Shown here: positions 2,975 to 55,251 of the stretch, piece by piece
Numbering within the stretch: position 1 is the first letter of the stretch
Layout: the number at the start of each line of letters is the position of its first letter
Assembly (NCBI GenBank): GCA_964477845.1
Contig: CAYZES010000001.1
Span: 36,426 to 100,425, forward strand
Length of the DNA stretch: 64,000 bases
Direction of reading: 5' to 3'
Origin: an uncultured Dehalococcoidia bacterium
GTDB taxonomy: Bacteria; Chloroflexota; Dehalococcoidia; Lucifugimonadales; UBA2962
Translations under genes and position numbers: made by a program
Notes under the pieces: model-generated
What the model saw: the letters and a program-made list of their open reading frames with translations, nothing else
Told to the model about the DNA's origin: nothing
The model's database searches: none

Positions 2975-3742
2975 GTGAGGGACATGGGCGAGTTCGACGG
3001 AAAGATAGTGCTGGTTACCGGTGCGGGCTCCGGAATAGGCCGGGCGACCGCACTGCTCTTCGCCCGAAGGGGCGCGAAGGTCGCCTGCTCGGACATCGAC
3101 GCCGAGTCGGGCGAGCAGACGGTGCGCATGATCGAGGACACCGGCGGACAGGGTTCGTTCTTCCGCGCCGATGTCGCCGTCTCCGCGGACATCGAGGCCA
3201 TGGTCAGGGCCGTGGTCGAGCGCTACGGACGGCTCGACATCGCCTACAACAACGCCGGAATAGGGGGCCTTGGTAAGCCCATCGACCAGCACACCCTCGA
3301 CGAGTTCGAGCGGACTATGGCGATCAATACGAAGGGCGTCTTCCTCGGCATGAAGTACCAGATTCCCCAGATGCTCGCCCAGGGCGGCGGGGTCATAGTC
3401 AATACCGCCTCGATGGTGGGTCTGATAGGCATGGCGGGCATCAGCGCGTACGTTGCCTCCAAGCACGCGGTGGTCGGCCTGACCCGCTCGGCGGCACTTG
3501 AGTATGCGGACAAGGGTATCCGGATCAACTGCATCTGCCCGGGCATCATCCGCACGCCGATCAACCAGAAGTTCTGGGACGAGTTTCCCGAGGCCGAGGA
3601 AGAGTGGCTTCCCATGGAGCCAATCGGCAGGTATGGAGAGCCCGAAGAGGTTGCGGAGGTCGTGGCCTGGCTTTCGTCCGACGACGCTTCCTTCGTCCAC
3701 GGCCACGCGATGACGGTCGATGGCGCGGCGACCGCCCAGTAG
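2975..3742 (+). CDS. SDR-family oxidoreductase (classical short-chain dehydrogenase)
   Basis: [10 protein letters not shown] (TGxxxGxG), NNAGI, catalytic YxxxK (YVASKHAV), PG motif. The start could instead be ATG 2984. Confidence 0.9.
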
Positions 3743-11357: not shown

Positions 11358-11650
11358 GCGGCCGTGCACCCCTTGTTCGATCTCCTCCCGAGACTTGACC
11401 GCCGGGGCCGGCTCAAGCCAGGTGGACCCACGGCACCCGAGAGGCCCTGCTTACCGCTGCTTCCTTCCGGACCTGACGGGGTTCACAAGCTCTCGCCGCG
11501 TGGGACCCGGCTCTCAGCACCGGCGTCCGGGGACAGTGGCCTTGGGAGGGGGACCTCCGAGGGGAATTCAGCCCCGCTGGAGCGGATTGCGAGTAGAGGG
11601 CACCGCTAGCTCCCCGCCTAGCACGGCCAAGGCCATGGTAGTCAACCGGT
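11358..11650 (-). ncRNA. ffs: Signal recognition particle RNA, long Bacillus-type with Alu domain
   Basis: Minus strand reads GGCCGTGCTAGGCGGGGAGCTAGCGGTGCCCTCTACTCGCAATCCGCTCCAGCGGGGCTGAATTCCCCTCGGAGG ... GTCAGGTCCGGAAGGAAGCAGCGGTAAGC ... GGTGCACGGCC. It has the universal domain IV motif, an Alu-domain 5' part matching the B. subtilis scRNA as I recall it, and 5' GGCCGTGC pairing with 3' GCACGGCC. Ends are about +/-15 nt. Confidence 0.85.
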
Positions 11651-16684: not shown

Positions 16685-16739
16685 AGCGCCCGTTCTCCCC
16701 TGCGGCCGAAACATCGGGCCGCAGGGGAGAACGGGCGCT
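16685..16739. repeat. Perfect 23-bp inverted repeat (AGCGCCCGTTCTCCCCTGCGGCC / GGCCGCAGGGGAGAACGGGCGCT), 9-nt spacer
   Basis: Arms at 16685-16707 and 16717-16739, read directly from the sequence. There is no clear U-tract on either strand. Confidence 0.6.
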
Positions 16740-16773
16740 CAGATTGGCAGGCTAGATTCGCTTAAGAAAGGTC

Positions 16774-16804
16774 GGCCCCTCCAGTTGCACCTTCTGGAGG
16801 GGCC
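16774..16804 (-). terminator. Intrinsic terminator candidate for the His-rich ORF
   Basis: 11-bp GC stem GGCCCCTCCAG/CTGGAGGGGCC with a 9-nt loop, 9 nt after the minus-strand stop, followed on the minus strand by GACCTTTCTTAAG. Confidence 0.6.
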
Positions 16805-16812
16805 ACCGATGT

Positions 16813-17040
16813 CTAATGTCCGTGGTGTTCGTGGTCGTCGCACTCGTGCTGGTCGTGCACGTGCCCAGCGTCATCGCCGTGGTGTTCGTGGTCGTCGCAC
16901 TCATGCTCGGTGTGCTCGGCGTGATGTTCGTGGGTATCGCACTCGTGCTCGTCATGCACGTGCCCAGCCTCATCGGCGTGGTGCTCGTGGGTATCGCACT
17001 CGTGCTGGTCGTGTTCGTGGGCCATATGCTCCTCCATCAA
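16813..17040 (-). CDS. Histidine/cysteine/acidic repeat micro-protein, putative metal-binding (Hpn-like by composition)
   Basis: 75 codons: 25 His, 4 Cys, 27 Asp/Glu. Four HECD(T/D)HEHH repeats. C/G-ending codons (CAC, GAG, GAC). GGAGGAG sits at the 5' end, so the start may be ATG 17037 or 17025. A minus-strand terminator hairpin lies downstream. An equally long antisense ORF exists, so the strand call is not certain. Confidence 0.6.
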   Translation of the reverse strand: MMEEHMAHEHDQHECDTHEHHADEAGHVHDEHECDTHEHHAEHTEHECDDHEHHGDDAGHVHDQHECDDHEHHGH

Positions 17041-17580
17041 AGCTCTTTTTGCTGCAGGTTGCTACAGCTAGTGGTCTCACCACTGTTCATACTTACACAC
17101 CATGAGTTTACCAGACAACCCCCTGCCAATCTCGTGTTGTTTGGCGCAACAACTAGCCACGAACGGGAGATGGAACCGGTCGTCTTTAGGTTGGAAGACG
17201 AAGACCCTACATTCGCTCGAAGGGGTACAGTATTGGATCTATATGAGAGCCAGTATCACAACAATCAGGCCTGATAATGTTCCTTCTTCTTGCCCGAGTT
17301 CCTTGCCTTGATTTTGAGCCTCAGCGACTTGTTTTTCGGATGATGATATACAGTCGCAATAGGCGATCAGTTACGGCAGGTAATTGGACCGCGGGTCCTG
17401 CCGATCAACGCAGGCATGCGGAGGATTGCTGCTGTGCCGTTGAGTAGGATTCAGCTACATGGCCCTGGACGGGGACCCGAATCCGGCGCATGGGCTAGCG
17501 GGGCGGCTTGACGCAACTCGCCTGACCGGTACATGATCAGCCCGCGTGTCACAGACATCTCCGGGGCGGGAGCATCTGCG

Positions 17581-18984: not shown

Positions 18985-19321
18985 GCTAGGCCGCACCGAA
19001 TGCGGGGCCTAACGGGCCCTGGTAGGAGTAGGAGGGGACGGCGGAAGCTGCGGACGCGCGGGCAGTACGGCGTTCGGACATGACCCGGTCGTCACCGCTG
19101 AGACCCGTCTCGTTAGGTCTCGCACCATCCCGGTGCCGGAGGCAACTGCGGTCAGCATTTCCGCCCAGTAGGTAAGCCGGCAGTTGAGCCGGCACGTTTG
19201 CGCCGGGGTGGTGCGTTTGGTCAGTGGCAGAATTCATCGCGGCAAAGGCGCGGTGTCGAGTTTGACGCGCAAAACAGATCACCGATAGGATGTGGGCTCC
19301 GCATTCACCGCTGAGGGTGCC

Positions 19322-19327
19322 TATAAT
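19322..19327 (+). promoter_or_regulatory. Perfect TATAAT -10 box 7 nt upstream of the zur ATG (leaderless-type start)
   Basis: cCTATAATCCAGGTCATG with no SD. The same geometry occurs at 26345 (TATAATCCAGCAGACATG) and 48688 (TACACTTGCGCCTATG). Confidence 0.5.
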
Positions 19328-19334
19328 CCAGGTC

Positions 19335-19772
19335 ATGACAACGCCGCCCACCGCCTCTCGCCCGGATATGATGGCCGTCCTCGAGGATCGCGGTTATCGA
19401 TCCACAGCCCCTAGGAGAGCGATCATCCGAATCCTGGAGGGCAAGCAGGAAGGCTTTACCGCGGACGAGATCGGCAGTGAACTGCCCGGGGTAGGCAGGG
19501 CGACGATCTTCCGGACCATAAAGCTCCTCATGGAGGTAGGCGTCATATGCAGGCTGAACCTCCTCGACGGCGCTCCCAAGTACAGCCTGTCGCGCATTGA
19601 GCACCATCACCACACGGTATGCGTCAGGTGCGGCATAGTCGGGGAATTTCGGGCCACTACCTTTGAGCGCTTGCTTCGGAGCTTGGGCACCGATATTCCC
19701 GGCGAGATAATGGGTCACCGGATCGAGCTCTACGTCATCTGTGACCGCTGCGTCGAGGGCGAGACCAGCTAG
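19335..19772 (+). CDS. zur: Fur-family metalloregulator, probably Zur
   Basis: Winged-helix RSTAPRRAIIRILEG...FTADEI, then HHHHTVCVRCG ... CDRC. It sits immediately upstream of a znuACB-like operon. The Zur-versus-Fur assignment is by context only. Confidence 0.75.
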   Translation: MTTPPTASRPDMMAVLEDRGYRSTAPRRAIIRILEGKQEGFTADEIGSELPGVGRATIFRTIKLLMEVGVICRLNLLDGAPKYSLSRIEHHHHTVCVRCGIVGEFRATTFERLLRSLGTDIPGEIMGHRIELYVICDRCVEGETS

Positions 19773-19957
19773 GGACAATCCAGGGCAAAAGTGACGATTT
19801 ACCCTGGCCTGCGTTGAGACCTATTATCATCGACTAGACAACCGCATTTTGTCGATTTCGCGTCGCTCAAGATTGAGACAAATTATCAAAGGACTGGATG
19901 CGCAATTGACCTCTTCTGAGGCAAGCCCATAGATCGCTAACAGGGAGACTCTGACTG

Positions 19958-21427
19958 ATGATGACGTCCAAAAACAGATACTTGATTTCCCGTGCGGCCA
20001 AGAGCGTCCTTTTGGCGCTTGCGCTCGTCCTTATGGCGGCTCTTGCGGCTTGTTCGGACGACAGCGGCACGGCGGTGGCGACGCCGAAGACGGTGGCGAC
20101 GCCGAAGGTCGAGCCTACTGTTGCCACGTCGGAAGAACCCGAACCAGAGGGTCGCGACCTTCTCGTCGTAACGACCACCAACATCGTGGCCGATTGGGTG
20201 GAGAACATAGCCGGGGACAATGTAGAGGTGTTCAGCCTGCTGCCGGTGGGTGCCGATCCCCACGGATATCAGCCCGGTGCCAGGGACGTTGCGAGGGTTG
20301 CCGACGCCGACCTGGTGCTCAGCGTAGGGCTCGGCCTGGAGGAGTCTTGGCTAAGGGAACTCCTGCAGAACGCCGCGCGCGACCCTTCGACCATAGTAGA
20401 ACTGGGCGAACTAATAGACCCGATCGAGTTCGGCGAAACTCACATAGAGGATGTCGAACTACTGGAGGGGGTCGCCCACGCCATCGAGGAGGTGGAGGCG
20501 GGTGAGATCAGCCCCGAGGAGGCATTGGAGGAGATCCGGGAGCTGCTCGAGGCCCTAGAGGAGGGCGAGCACCACGGGGATGAAGGGGCGGAGGATGAAG
20601 GCCACATGGATGAAGAGGCGGGGGATGAAGGCCACATGGATGAAGAGGCGGGGGATGAAGACCATATGGATGAAGATGAGGGTGAGGACCACGCCGAAGC
20701 AGATGAGGACGAGGGTGACGATCACGGGGATGAAGAGGGGGAGGAGGAACACGAGGAGGAGCACGGGGATGAGCTTGTCGAGATGGTGGAGGCAGTACTC
20801 GAAGAGTTCGATGAGGGTCATATCGGGGCCGACGAGGCCGTAGAGGTCCTGGAGGCCCTTTCGCACGAGGGCGAGGAAGAGCACGAGGGCCACGGCCACG
20901 GCATCCATGATCCTCACTTCTGGTTCGATCCGATTCGCGTAAAGCTCGCGGTCGACGACATAGCCGAACGCCTGTCCGCCCTGGATCCTGACCGCCGCGA
21001 CACCTACGTCGCCAATGCCTCTGCATATGGCGCAGAGCTTGACGAACTGCACACCTGGACACAGCAGCAGTTGGCAGGAGTGCCGCAGGCCAACAGGCTG
21101 CTGGTGACCTCGCATGACAGCCTTGGTTACTTCGCGAACCTCTACGATTTCGAGGTGATCGGGGTGATCCTGTCGATCACGACTGAGGCTGAGCCGTCTC
21201 CCGAAGATCTCGCCCATCTGGTCGAGGAGGTCAGGGAGTATCAGGTCCCGGCGGTGTTCGGCGAGACGACGGTGAGTGATCGCCTGGCCCAGGCGGTCGC
21301 CGCGGAATCCGGCGCGGAGTTCGTCAGGCTGTACTCCGGCTCTCTTGGAGGCGATGGCAGCGGTGCGGCCACCTATATCGGGATGGTGCGCGCCAACGTC
21401 GAGCGCATAGCCGAGGCCCTGAACTGA
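19958..21427 (+). CDS. znuA: Metal (zinc) ABC transporter substrate-binding lipoprotein with very long acidic/His-rich insertion
   Basis: Lipobox LMAALAAC. TroA/ZnuA core: VVTTTNIVADWVENIAGD, GADPHGYQP, HDPHFWFDP, LVTSHDSLGYF. The insertion is at about residues 158-317. Confidence 0.85.
   Translation: MMTSKNRYLISRAAKSVLLALALVLMAALAACSDDSGTAVATPKTVATPKVEPTVATSEEPEPEGRDLLVVTTTNIVADWVENIAGDNVEVFSLLPVGADPHGYQPGARDVARVADADLVLSVGLGLEESWLRELLQNAARDPSTIVELGELIDPIEFGETHIEDVELLEGVAHAIEEVEAGEISPEEALEEIRELLEALEEGEHHGDEGAEDEGHMDEEAGDEGHMDEEAGDEDHMDEDEGEDHAEADEDEGDDHGDEEGEEEHEEEHGDELVEMVEAVLEEFDEGHIGADEAVEVLEALSHEGEEEHEGHGHGIHDPHFWFDPIRVKLAVDDIAERLSALDPDRRDTYVANASAYGAELDELHTWTQQQLAGVPQANRLLVTSHDSLGYFANLYDFEVIGVILSITTEAEPSPEDLAHLVEEVREYQVPAVFGETTVSDRLAQAVAAESGAEFVRLYSGSLGGDGSGAATYIGMVRANVERIAEALN
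20594..20680 (+). repeat. Tandem 30-bp coding repeat (GATGAAGGCCACATGGATGAAGAGGCGGGG x2 plus a diverged third copy)
   Basis: 20594-20623 and 20624-20653 are identical; 20654-20680 is diverged. They encode DEGHMDEEAG units inside the ZnuA loop. Confidence 0.85.
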
Positions 21428-21436
21428 GGACTCCGC

Positions 21437-21471
21437 AGCTGATCGGTCCGTCCTACACGGACCGATCAGCT
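21437..21471 (+). other. Perfect 15-bp stem-loop between znuA and znuC
   Basis: AGCTGATCGGTCCGT-cctac-ACGGACCGATCAGCT, 10 nt after the znuA stop, with no U-tract. Confidence 0.6.
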
Positions 21472-21530
21472 ATCGCTGGTCGAGGGACCGGAGTGCACTG
21501 GTGAGTGGTTGACGTAATCGGACGCTGAAG

Positions 21531-22289
21531 ATGGACGCCACGCTGGGCATATCTGTCAAAGACGTAACCGTCGAGCGCCGCGGCTTCGAGGCCCTGACCG
21601 GCATAACCTTCGAGGTAGGGCGGGGAACCCTGATGGGCGTCTTGGGCCCCAATGGGGCCGGCAAGAGCACCCTCTTCGACGCGATTGCGGGAATTCTGCC
21701 CATCGCGAGCGGGACCGTGGAACTGCGTGGCGCGGATGCCCGCAACGGATCGCTGGCCTACGTCCCCCAGCGAGACAGCATCAACTGGCGTTTTCCGGCC
21801 ACCATCCTGGACGTAGTGATGATGGGGCGATCCAGCAATGTCGGATGGTTTCGTCAGCCTAGCAAGGGTGACCGGGAGATGGTGCGTGTATGTCTGGATC
21901 GAGTTGGGCTGTGGGAGCGGCGCTCGTCCCTGATGACGGAGCTGTCCGGCGGGCAGCGCCAGCGGGTGTTTATCGCAAGAGCGCTGGCCCAGGAAGCGAG
22001 CATAATCTTGCTGGACGAGGCCTTCAGCGGGGTGGACGTCGGTGCCCAAGAGGGCATCATCGAGGTTCTCCAGTCACTTCGCAACGATGGCATGATAGTT
22101 CTGCTGGCCACACATGACCTTACCAACCTGGCCGAGCGCTTCGACCAGGTGCTGTGCATCAACCGTCACGTCTGCGCATGCGGCGCACCCGAAGAGGCGT
22201 TCACGCCGAAGGTACTTGAGGAGCTCTACGGCTCGCACGGCCTGGACTTTGTGCTAAACGGGCCGGGCAGCACCACAGGCGAAGCGTAA
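21531..22289 (+). CDS. znuC: Metal ABC transporter ATP-binding protein
   Basis: Walker A GPNGAGKST, signature LSGGQRQRV, Walker B ILLDEAFSGVD. Confidence 0.85.
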   Translation: MDATLGISVKDVTVERRGFEALTGITFEVGRGTLMGVLGPNGAGKSTLFDAIAGILPIASGTVELRGADARNGSLAYVPQRDSINWRFPATILDVVMMGRSSNVGWFRQPSKGDREMVRVCLDRVGLWERRSSLMTELSGGQRQRVFIARALAQEASIILLDEAFSGVDVGAQEGIIEVLQSLRNDGMIVLLATHDLTNLAERFDQVLCINRHVCACGAPEEAFTPKVLEELYGSHGLDFVLNGPGSTTGEA

Positions 22290-23113
22290 TGGCGTTTCTG
22301 ACCGAGCCCTTCCAGTACGGGTTCATGGTGCGGGCGCTGATAGTCTCCGTGCTCGTCGGCATCATGTGCCCGGTACTCGGTGCATACGTAATCACGAGGG
22401 GACGTGCCTTCATGGGAGACGCGCTCGCCCACTCGGTGCTGCCCGGCATGGTTGTCGCCTTCATGCTGGGAATCAGCCCGTTCTTTGCGGCCGTGCCCGC
22501 TGGAATAGGGATTGCCCTGTTGATGGGTTCGGTCAGCCGACGCACTGGAGTTAGCGAGGACACCTCGATCGGCATTATCTTCGCGGGCATGTTCGCACTG
22601 GGCCTGGTGATGCTGTCGGTGGCCACCCACGTCAATGTAAACATCGAGGATCTGCTGCTGGGACAGGTTCTAGGAGTCTCGCGTAACGACGTATTCATCT
22701 CGCTCGGGCTGACCGCACTGGTAGTTGTCGGGCTGTATGCATTTCATCGTCATCTCGTGTACACGACCTTCGATCCGGTGGGTGCTACGGTTATCGGCAT
22801 TCGGACGGGCGTAATCGAGTACGTGCTGCTCGCCCTGCTGGCGCTTGTAATCATCATCGGCATACAGGCCGCCGGCATCGTCCTGGTCATGGCGATGCTC
22901 ATCACTCCGGCGGCCACCGGCTACCTCCTGGCCAAAAGGTTCGTCGGGGTCATGGTCATCGGCGCGCTGGTCGGCGCCATTTCGGCGGTGGTCGGCCTGT
23001 ATGTCTCCTTCCATGTAGACCTCCCATCGGGTCCTGCTATGGCGCTGGTGGCCACACTGGCCTTCGCGGTGGTAGCCACTGTGAAGACCAGGTGGAACGT
23101 GCGCGCACTCTAA
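22289..23113 (+). CDS. znuB: Metal ABC transporter permease (ABC-3 family)
   Basis: The start overlaps the znuC stop. 274 aa, polytopic, MGDALAHSVLPG motif typical of ZnuB/MntB-type permeases. Confidence 0.85.
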   Translation: MAFLTEPFQYGFMVRALIVSVLVGIMCPVLGAYVITRGRAFMGDALAHSVLPGMVVAFMLGISPFFAAVPAGIGIALLMGSVSRRTGVSEDTSIGIIFAGMFALGLVMLSVATHVNVNIEDLLLGQVLGVSRNDVFISLGLTALVVVGLYAFHRHLVYTTFDPVGATVIGIRTGVIEYVLLALLALVIIIGIQAAGIVLVMAMLITPAATGYLLAKRFVGVMVIGALVGAISAVVGLYVSFHVDLPSGPAMALVATLAFAVVATVKTRWNVRAL

Positions 23114-26081: not shown

Positions 26082-26163
26082 TGGGGAAGGCGGGAGTCGA
26101 ACCCGCACGCCTTGCGGCACAGGATCCTAAATCCTGCTCGTCTACCAGTTCCGACACTTCCCC
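26082..26163 (-). tRNA. tRNA-Leu (anticodon UAG), CCA not encoded
   Basis: Minus strand GGGGAAG TG TCGGAACTGGTAGACGAG CAGGA TTTAGGA TCCTG TGCCGCAAGGCGT GCGGG TTCGACT CCCGC CTTCCCC A. 7-bp acceptor stem, long variable arm, T-loop TTCGACT. Confidence 0.9.
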
Positions 26164-54991: not shown

Positions 54992-55089
54992 CCGGACAGC
55001 CTAATCCGAGTCCGCATGCCGTGCCAAGACCGTGCGTTTGACATGGTGTCGGCGCGGAAATAGACTTTGCGCCACAGAGCTATAGATCA

Positions 55090-55190
55090 TATTCACCCGG
55101 GGGAGCCCGCTAGGGCTGAGAGGCCGGCCGAAGGGCCGTCGACCCCTCGAACCTGACCTGGATAACGCCAGCGTAGGGAGCGGGAACCAC
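55090..55190 (+). promoter_or_regulatory. TPP (THI-box) riboswitch
   Basis: CCCGGGGGAGCCCGCTAGGGCTGAGAGGCC...GACCCCTCGAACCTGACCTGGATAACGCCAGCGTAGGGAGCGGG contains the CTGAGA and ACCTGA-CTGGATAA-GCCAGCGTAGGGA cores. Lies upstream of tenA-thiD. Confidence 0.9.
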
Positions 55191-55194
55191 TTAG

Positions 55195-55251
55195 GCATCG
55201 CCGCGCCGGCCCAGTCCACTAGGGACCCGGACAGAGGCGGTGCTTTTTTTG
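55195..55251 (+). terminator. Candidate riboswitch expression-platform terminator
   Basis: GCATCGCC (55195-55202) pairs with GGCGGTGC (55236-55243, one G-U), followed by T7 (55244-55250). The large internal loop has a GTCC/GGAC sub-hairpin. Confidence 0.5.

Follow-up and report, generated by a model that had tools for sequence, protein, structure and literature searches.

A 64-kb stretch of DNA from an uncultured Dehalococcoidia bacterium (contig CAYZES010000001.1; the whole stretch of 64,000 nucleotides that was analysed is hereafter called the window) contains a minus-strand gene for a small protein in which most residues are potential metal ligands. The protein belongs to a widespread family built from repeats of the nonapeptide HECDxHEHH, and genes of this family recur beside those for zinc uptake and for cation diffusion facilitator (CDF) exporters, to which the same module is occasionally fused. 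We consider it probable (roughly 0.6) that the protein buffers or chaperones Zn(II) in the cytoplasm under the control of Zur, in the manner of a metallothionein and in partnership with a CDF exporter, and that it is disordered when metal-free. Zinc is favoured because the module occurs at the N-termini of CDF proteins, because the box upstream of the gene is common to the znuA promoter, and because neighbouring CDFs have a Zn-type transport site. Zinc binding, the identity of the metal, its stoichiometry, its transfer to the exporter and whether Zur activates or represses the gene are all features that we infer from sequence and gene context. An earlier note on this DNA had put the protein forward as a candidate for a new cytosolic Zn, Ni or Co buffer or metallochaperone; the homologs and synteny described below support that suggestion and would narrow it to zinc.

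A conserved family built from HECDxHEHH units

The open reading frame (ORF) to which the earlier note drew attention spans 75 codons on the minus strand (16813-17040), and the translation given there is an exact match to ours. Script counts confirm the 25 His, 4 Cys and 27 Asp/Glu residues reported, that is, 56 potential metal ligands among 75 residues. This mechanically defined ORF starts with TTG at 17040. The GGAGGAG motif that had been placed at its 5' end is indeed present but lies within the TTG-started ORF; because it stands 3 nt before an ATG at 17025, that ATG is likely the true start, and the coding sequence most likely specifies a protein of 70 residues (Table 1). The N-terminus of this shorter form, MAHEHDQHECD..., agrees with those of its orthologs (M-x2-8-H-D/E-x-HECD). 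About 34% of its residues are His, the longest His run is HH, and each of its four Cys residues stands singly. Lys and Arg are absent from the protein, which is consequently invisible to trypsin-based proteomics, and no N-terminal hydrophobic signal segment is seen in its sequence. The four HECD(T/D)HEHH units are arranged in two larger units, as had been claimed, and a tandem duplication with a 99-bp period at the DNA level yields these two 2-unit modules.

Homologs were sought in several ways. A word-indexed search returned 20 metagenomic proteins and a profile search 77 protein clusters, in all of which the unit HECDxHEHH-(G/A)DE(P/A)GHVHDx-HECDxHEHH is present. A degenerate DNA pattern for one such unit matched at least 120 stretches, each of 8 kb, of species-representative genomes; these loci carry L numbers, and metagenomic homologs or cluster members carry P numbers. 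Removal of chance matches and of Firmicutes COG0523 proteins left 98-99 unique small genes among the matches listed, to which all counts of genes and loci given here and below refer. We define a family member as a protein of ~30-170 residues with at least two HECDxHEHH units and a linker of the form (G/A)DE(P/A)GHVHDx or AH(V/E)HDx, and the window protein, with four units and two long linkers, fits this definition. Members have 2-10 units, four being the commonest number (59 of 98 genes), with a median length of 72.5 and a maximum of 167 residues. Their hosts are mostly Dehalococcoidia/Chloroflexota metagenome-assembled genomes (MAGs), together with eight Acidimicrobiia and a few others, and many host isolate names look marine sponge-derived. 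Conserved homologs, on which the earlier note had made its proposal depend, are therefore found in more than 100 species-level genomes, and the HECDxHEHH motif is invariant across two phyla.

Codon usage in the linkers bears on which strand is translated. In 122 unique modules, the ten linker codons, which lay outside the constraints of the search pattern, have entropies of 4.43, 4.55 and 12.73 at codon positions 1, 2 and 3, respectively. Such third-position variation points to selection on the His-rich frame and is incompatible with selection on the Val-rich antisense ORF (plus strand, 16816-17274, 152 residues), whose variable sites would be first positions. The antisense frame stays open because a codon for His, Glu, Asp or Cys can never give a stop when its reverse complement is read, and we regard that ORF as an artefact of composition. 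Judged from the codon statistics, the amino acid sequence is under strong purifying selection, linkers included. In addition, 86 of 100 orthologs have a Shine-Dalgarno-like motif at a distance of 4-18 nt ahead of the ATG that was chosen. By all of these sequence measures, we take the window ORF to be a real gene.

Efforts to connect the protein to a described family were unsuccessful, in line with the remark in the earlier note that its motif was unfamiliar. The window peptide matches no Pfam family at E <= 0.1, no NCBIfam model, and no PDB sequence at E <= 10. A 15-billion-protein collection does not contain the exact window protein, nor any family member with a source name or accession; motif strings of the form HECDxHEHH gave no match in ~8 million papers searched as full text, and topical searches gave no description of the motif or family. 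A HMMER scan of 1.84 billion representative proteins returned only 26 matches, with no fusion proteins among them, probably because gene callers rarely call these ORFs; bias filters may also remove some of them. AlphaFold2, run on a 14-sequence alignment, gives a mean pLDDT (predicted local distance difference test) of 51 and no fold, a result that fits a protein disordered without metal and folding only around it. On the basis of these searches, the family is new, widespread and unannotated, within the general kind of small, ligand-rich cytoplasmic metal-binding proteins; what is distinctive is its motif, its modular architecture and its coupling to a CDF exporter. The practical lesson is of a family without name, accession or domain match in any source examined.

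Two minor points concern the collected sequences. One cluster member, the 656-residue P0053, looks unrelated and was probably mis-clustered. Three other entries (P0006, P0008 and P0012) shift midway into a Thr/Ser-rich frame (...TSTSATHTNTT...), which looks like assembly frameshift errors in a repetitive gene and not like real variants.

Neighbouring zinc genes, exporter fusions and predicted operators

In the window, the peptide gene is convergent with a gene for a Zn-dependent alcohol dehydrogenase and divergent from sthA (528 bits against the NCBIfam model for Si-specific transhydrogenase). A Fur-family regulator and then a ZnuA with a long His/acidic loop follow at the distance reported in the earlier note (Table 1). 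The best NCBIfam match of this ZnuA is the zinc protein AztC, below the cut-off, and the second-best is MntC. Its insert occupies approximately residues 170-300, is rich in His, Asp and Glu, has repeated EGHMDEEAGDE units, and contains no Cys.

The synteny with zur/znu that had been proposed for this gene is real and extends to CDF exporters. Annotated metagenomic contigs have the gene orders CDF-Fur-ZnuA-ZnuC-ZnuB-peptide, ZnuA-ZnuB-peptide and peptide-CDF. When the neighbouring ORFs were clustered without bias, CDF proved the most frequent (58 loci), followed by ZnuB (14), ZnuC (12), ZnuA (11) and Fur-family proteins (9). In 28 of 99 cases the peptide gene has a same-strand CDF gene downstream of it, with gaps of 270-810 bp, and in 25 of 99 it is convergent with one, with gaps of 100-330 bp. 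It directly follows znuB on the same strand, at 240-390 bp, in nine of 99, while two further genes are both convergent with a CDF gene and placed after znuB, giving totals of 27 and 11 for these two arrangements. Because every locus is a block of fixed length (8 kb), flanking sequence is missing for many genes; of the 57 that are flanked by 1.5 kb or more on each side, 43 are no farther than 1.5 kb from a CDF, Znu or Fur-family gene. The recurrent neighbours include no modifying enzyme, peptidase or dedicated exporter in the 14 largest clusters, and no urease, hydrogenase, nik or other Ni/Co transporter, or cop genes.

Moreover, the module itself occurs in exporters. The sequence HECDxHEHH-GDEPGHVHD-HECDxHEHH forms the N-terminus of CDF proteins in L028, L040, L061 and L128, and a single unit does so in L056; Pfam confirms the Cation_efflux and ZT_dimer domains for both fusions tested (L028 and L040). 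CDF N-terminal tails are cytoplasmic, and those rich in Cys, Asp, Glu and His are thought to chelate metal and to influence selectivity (PMC8341793). Given this shared module, we take the small protein to be the free-standing form of the cytoplasmic metal-binding tail of a CDF, and the window gene, with its own stop codon and terminator-like hairpin, is not covalently part of one. Of 60 CDF ORFs in the peptide loci, 56 have HxxxD in transmembrane helix (TM) 2 and again in TM5, and the N-terminal tails of these ORFs have a median of ~30 His. In zinc-selective ZnTs, ZnT-8 and ZnT-1 among them, the transport site has this HD-HD arrangement (PMC8341793).

Two further observations on gene neighbourhoods are recorded here. 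Seven loci (L030, L038, L064, L071, L078, L092 and L106) have a second, more distant Fur-family gene that scores ~100 bits against the window regulator; the homologs of L007, L009 and L041, which are closer to it, exceed 200 bits. In most of the seven it adjoins a CDF gene on the same strand, L030 having no CDF match, which suggests a regulator-exporter operon convergent with the peptide gene. In L007 (1565-2843) and L009 (1779-2987), genes for the beta and alpha subunits of nitrile hydratase lie directly upstream of the CDF-Fur-ZnuABC-peptide cluster, raising the question of a cobalt or iron supply tied to the same locus.

Evidence for regulation comes from short inverted repeats. The sequence TGAGA-N5-TATCA, a Fur-box-like 5-5-5 inverted repeat, has three exact copies in the window, two of them in the znuA promoter and the third 5' of the peptide gene; the sole copy with one mismatch in the window is also upstream of the peptide gene. 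The gene carries, therefore, the same type of predicted operator as the znuA promoter of its own genome. Among 98 orthologs, the broader class TGA[GT]A-N5-T[AC]TCA is represented by 19 perfect and 41 one-mismatch boxes in the 250 nt upstream of the gene, by 4 and 6, respectively, in the next 250 nt, and by no more than 3 in any bin farther away. (This pattern replaced our first guess at the operator, the 7-mer ATTATCA, being better supported.) The ortholog boxes are often paired, ~60-70 bp apart. In seven of the loci that have the peptide gene after znuB (L007, L008, L012, L031, L044, L093 and L103), perfect boxes also stand a short way 5' of znuA, so the class is predicted to be the operator of the zinc-uptake regulator; in L001 a box is found 5.8 kb downstream, close to the zur-znuA genes of that locus. 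The regulator encoded at 19290-19772 is presumed to bind the boxes of the window. In 22 of the 28 loci in which the gene precedes a same-strand CDF gene, the box is 5' of the peptide gene and not between the two genes.

The placement of the boxes relative to promoters offers some indication of the sign of regulation. In the clade of L032 a conserved promoter, TTGTCA-N17-(TG)GACAAT, is predicted downstream of both boxes, which are at approximately -95 and -157, and in two other clades the boxes appear by eye to be upstream of a -35-like hexamer. As the boxes lie upstream of the -35 element wherever a promoter is predictable, activation at zinc sufficiency is somewhat likelier than repression. 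The znuA box that contains a -10-like TATTAT has the classic repression layout. Zur usually acts by repression, but in Streptomyces coelicolor it activates zitB from boxes upstream of the -35 element (PMC6103462), and Synechococcus Zur activates the metallothionein gene bmtA, which has two predicted Zur boxes (PMC9337993). The zitB case resembles ours in that one Fur-family sensor appears to serve promoters for both uptake and export or sequestration, with the box upstream of the -35 element at the latter (PMC6103462, PMC11077047); it differs in that regulation of the HECDxHEHH gene is predicted only, that the boxed gene encodes a small protein instead of a CDF, and that the boxes are paired ~60-100 bp apart.

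The upstream region of L032 has other features of its own. Upstream of its peptide gene, ~1 kb of sequence has no ORF of at least 90 residues (segment 2470-3260), and related upstream sequence is present in L010, L037, L040, L050 and L110. A promoter-like site on the minus strand of L032 has a -10-like hexamer that overlaps box 2, and the boxes may also act on a divergent transcript, or on a small gene. A conserved palindrome with variable loop, TGCC-N4-GGCA (L032 ~3446-3459 and aligned positions in L010, L037, L040, L050 and L110), sits 3' of the predicted promoter and 5' of the Shine-Dalgarno sequence of the peptide gene; it may act as a hairpin in a small RNA structure or as another operator.

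Proposed function and alternatives

We propose that the working unit of the protein would be a pair of HECDxHEHH nonapeptides joined by the conserved linker G-D-E-P-G-H-V-H-D-x, of which the window protein has two. The GDEPG segment of the linker might form a turn that folds the two nonapeptides back on one another, so that each pair could gather 2 Cys, ~10 His and ~8 carboxylates into a multi-zinc cluster, and capacity would rise with the number of units, between 2 and 10. The protein would capture cytoplasmic Zn2+ and then either keep it as a reserve or hand it on to an exporter of the ZitB/CzcD type, its expression probably being set by Zur through the paired upstream Fur-type boxes.

Several observations weigh against this proposal. 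No CDF gene is present in the 64-kb window, and 14 of the 57 genes with full flanks lack a zinc gene in the 1.5 kb to either side. The boxes of the window, centred 214 and 314 nt upstream of the start, share an intergenic region with sthA and could serve that gene instead, and a search of the window found no consensus promoter for the peptide gene. Those nine genes that simply follow znuB have no box of their own and appear, by eye from their upstream sequences, to have their own TTGACA-N17 promoter. The overlap of box 2 in L032 with a divergent promoter-like site means that the boxes might control another transcript. The window regulator, moreover, scores weakly against all NCBIfam Fur/Zur/PerR models, so that its identity as Zur rests on context. 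Finally, the metal is assigned from neighbouring genes, and the A-site of a CDF does not by itself fix metal selectivity (PMC8341793).

Of known proteins, the prokaryotic metallothioneins SmtA and BmtA, and especially the Zur-activated BmtA of marine Synechococcus WH8102 (PMC9337993), offer a close functional parallel, being likewise small cytoplasmic proteins made of metal ligands. BmtA stores and buffers zinc (PMC9337993), as we suggest for the HECDxHEHH protein; both genes have two predicted Zur boxes upstream, and both hosts are marine bacteria that also use Zur for znuABC. The window protein, however, has no sequence or Pfam relation to this family (Pfam Metallothio_Pro), only four Cys and no fold predicted by AlphaFold2. 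Whereas BmtA is Cys-rich with a zinc-finger-like fold, the ligands of the HECDxHEHH proteins are dominated by His and carboxylates with one Cys per unit, and their architecture is modular, expandable from 2 to 10 units, and genetically coupled to a CDF exporter. A second parallel is with the N-terminal tails and loops of CDF proteins such as CzcD/ZitB, MTP1 and the ZnTs (PMC8341793), given the identical module at CDF N-termini in five loci, a single unit in the case of L056. Unlike these tails, the window module is a separate gene product with its own Shine-Dalgarno sequence, promoter region and terminator.

A narrower form of the proposal is that the protein is a dedicated zinc metallochaperone, a trans-acting version of the exporter tail that would dock on the CDF and feed it Zn2+, one and the same Zur turning its gene on and znuABC off. 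This is possible, but we would advance it only tentatively. We know of no soluble zinc donor for a CDF exporter, and to our knowledge a free-standing cytoplasmic one has not been described before. If the idea were true, a single sensor would govern uptake, buffering and export in Dehalococcoidia. Zinc buffering and routing in the bacterial cytoplasm are poorly understood, with few protein players other than the cyanobacterial and pseudomonad metallothioneins and the COG0523 GTPases. The present family would add a chemically distinct solution, based on His and carboxylate ligands, one Cys per unit, and expandable arrays of 2-10 units. Its coupling and occasional fusion to exporters of the ZitB/CzcD type make it possible to ask experimentally whether CDF exporters get their zinc from a protein donor.

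Alternatively, the protein might act in zinc starvation, Zur repressing its gene together with znuABC, and would then capture imported Zn at the inner face of ZnuBC, to be held or distributed. In this it would resemble the COG0523 chaperones that Zur regulates, or it would serve as proactive protection from zinc shock. The same type of box in the znuA promoter, where it overlaps a -10-like element, the position of 11 of the 99 genes directly behind a same-strand znuB, and repression as the way in which Zur usually acts (PMC6103462), are all consistent with this idea. Nevertheless, CDF is the commonest neighbour (58 loci versus 11-14 for the Znu genes), the module is fused to exporters and not to importers, the genes after znuB have no box and, by eye, a promoter of their own, and, in cases with a predictable promoter, the boxes stand upstream of its -35 element. 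We consequently regard a starvation role, although it is the main rival, as unlikely. COG0523 proteins (CobW/YciC/ZigA-type), which are Zur-regulated zinc metallochaperones (PMC2770081), share with the window protein a link to Zur and a His-rich metal-binding segment, but the window protein has no G3E GTPase or CobW_C domain (no Pfam match is found, and 70 residues are too few) and no enzymatic part. A related but distinct repeat, HDHECDCHEHHH, is present in four Firmicutes loci (L011, L014, L021 and L075, from Acutalibacteraceae, Eubacteriales and Oscillospiraceae MAGs), in a His-rich stretch ahead of a CobW_C-type C-terminal region that Pfam confirms for L011. Its resemblance to the HECDxHEHH unit, which could reflect convergence or shared ancestry, also speaks for the starvation role.

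That the protein instead stores or buffers Ni, Co, Cd or Cu, in the manner of the nickel-storage protein Hpn of Helicobacter pylori, appears improbable. The comparison with Hpn made in the earlier note is borne out only at the level of composition; BLASTP against an Hpn sequence gives no alignment at E <= 100. Hpn and Hpn-2 are similar to the window protein in being small, cytoplasmic, rich in His and poor in Cys, without a hydrophobic core, and presumably able to bind several metal ions. In contrast to them, the window protein lacks poly-His runs and CC pairs and has a strict nonapeptide repeat, and its family is found among zinc genes, not nickel enzymes, in Dehalococcoidia and Acidimicrobiia. 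Nitrile hydratases need Co or Fe, and the genes for such an enzyme upstream of the cluster in L007 and L009 would fit another metal. So would the second-best match of the window ZnuA to MntC and the ability of CDF and ZnuA-family proteins to carry other metals (PMC8341793). The lack of urease, hydrogenase, Ni/Co transporter and cop genes among the recurrent neighbours, and the Zn-type HD-HD site of the CDFs, argue for zinc. So does the window ZnuA, since a long His/acidic loop is typical of zinc-specific binding proteins.

Because 28 of the 99 genes lie 270-810 bp 5' of a same-strand CDF gene, 22 of them with the box 5' of the peptide gene, we also considered a regulatory upstream ORF that would control the CDF, for example if translation stalled at His codons or if the nascent chain bound metal. 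This is very improbable, however, since the immediately 5', same-strand position expected of a leader or attenuator is true of only these 28 genes; at least as many are convergent with a CDF gene or follow znuB, and the window has no CDF gene. Further points against such a role are the terminator-like hairpin found 3' of the gene in L032 as well as in the window, the purifying selection that appears to extend to the linkers, lengths of up to 167 residues, and the existence of the module as a domain fused to CDFs. There is similarly very little chance that the protein is a precursor, made on the ribosome, from which a secreted peptide that binds metal would derive (a zincophore or a ribosomally synthesized and post-translationally modified peptide), although it is small, repetitive, made of nearly nothing but metal ligands, and encoded near a zinc importer. 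Its sequence has no N-terminal hydrophobic signal segment, its gene has no modifying enzyme, peptidase or dedicated exporter among the recurrent neighbours, and on CDFs the module precedes the first transmembrane helix, in a tail of a kind that is cytoplasmic (PMC8341793). Least credible of all is the notion that the His-rich frame is no gene but a by-product of the DNA repeat or of the plus-strand Val-rich ORF: that ORF is longer, and the exact window protein is missing from the 15-billion-protein collection, but variation in the 122 modules falls on third positions of the His-rich frame, which are first positions of antisense codons, the antisense frame is open by necessity of codon composition, the Shine-Dalgarno sequence and ATG are conserved, and the motif is invariant across two phyla and stands in frame within CDF proteins.

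Features of the window locus

Table 1. Positions of the peptide gene, its repeats, the predicted boxes and the zinc-uptake genes in the window
Feature	Position	Strand	Remarks
His-rich protein, most likely coding sequence	16813..17025	-	70 residues, MAHEHDQ...HEHHGH; ATG 17025-17023; TAG 16815-16813
Shine-Dalgarno sequence GGAGGAG	17029..17035	-	3 nt 5' of ATG 17025, inside the TTG-started ORF
HECDTHEHH unit 1	16978..17004	-	residues 8-16 of the 70-residue protein; columns invariant in homolog alignment A1
HECDTHEHH unit 2	16921..16947	-	residues 27-35; connected to unit 1 by the 10-residue linker ADEAGHVHDE
HECDDHEHH unit 3	16879..16905	-	residues 41-49; seen in translation and alignment A1
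HECDDHEHH unit 4	16822..16848	-	residues 60-68; connected to unit 3 by the linker GDDAGHVHDQ
Internal tandem duplication	16821..17006		Tandem Repeats Finder: 99-bp period, 1.9 copies, 85% identity
Terminator-like GC-rich hairpin	16770..16807	-	begins 8 nt past the stop codon; followed by CCUUUCUU
Fur/Zur-type box TGAGAGCCAGTATCA	17244..17258		exact TGAGA-N5-TATCA; centred ~214 nt upstream of the chosen start
Second box, one mismatch, TGCGACTGTATATCA on the minus strand	17344..17358		100 bp from the box at 17244-17258, same intergenic region
Fur-family regulator, probable Zur	19290..19772	+	PF01475, E 1.2e-20; directly 5' of znuABC; 2.25 kb from the peptide gene
Fur/Zur-type box TGAGACCTATTATCA	19815..19829	+	znuA promoter; contains -10-like TATTAT
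Second znuA-promoter Fur/Zur-type box TGAGACAAATTATCA	19874..19888	+	exact TGAGA-N5-TATCA
znuA	19958-21427	+	long His/Asp/Glu insert; zinc uptake ATP-binding cassette transporter, whole span 19958..23113
znuC	21531-22289	+	assigned by tblastn match to the PF00005-called gene in L007/L009
znuB	22289-23113	+	assigned by tblastn match to the PF00950-called gene in L007/L009

The GC-rich hairpin and T-rich tract that the earlier note had placed just downstream of the peptide gene, on its own strand, are present. The hairpin has a folding energy (dG) of -28.5 kcal/mol (z -4.25), and 0 of 200 shuffled sequences fold as well. A simple terminator scan did not report it, because its 9-nt loop is probably over the limit of that scan. 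Folding of the 210 nt upstream of the start (z -0.5) gives no sign of a structured leader or riboswitch, and Rfam has no RNA family at the peptide locus. Elsewhere in the window, unrelated Rfam matches at the gathering threshold correspond to a large signal recognition particle RNA (11362-11626, minus strand), a tRNA (26082-26163, minus strand) and a thiamine pyrophosphate riboswitch (55089-55196, plus strand).

Between the convergent alcohol dehydrogenase and peptide genes, at 16686-16738, lies a perfect 22-bp inverted repeat, GCGCCCGTTCTCCCCTGCGGCC, with a 9-nt loop and arms that extend beyond the perfect part. It is single-copy within the 64-kb window, that is, no dispersed repeat, and has no T-run after it; it may be a bidirectional terminator.

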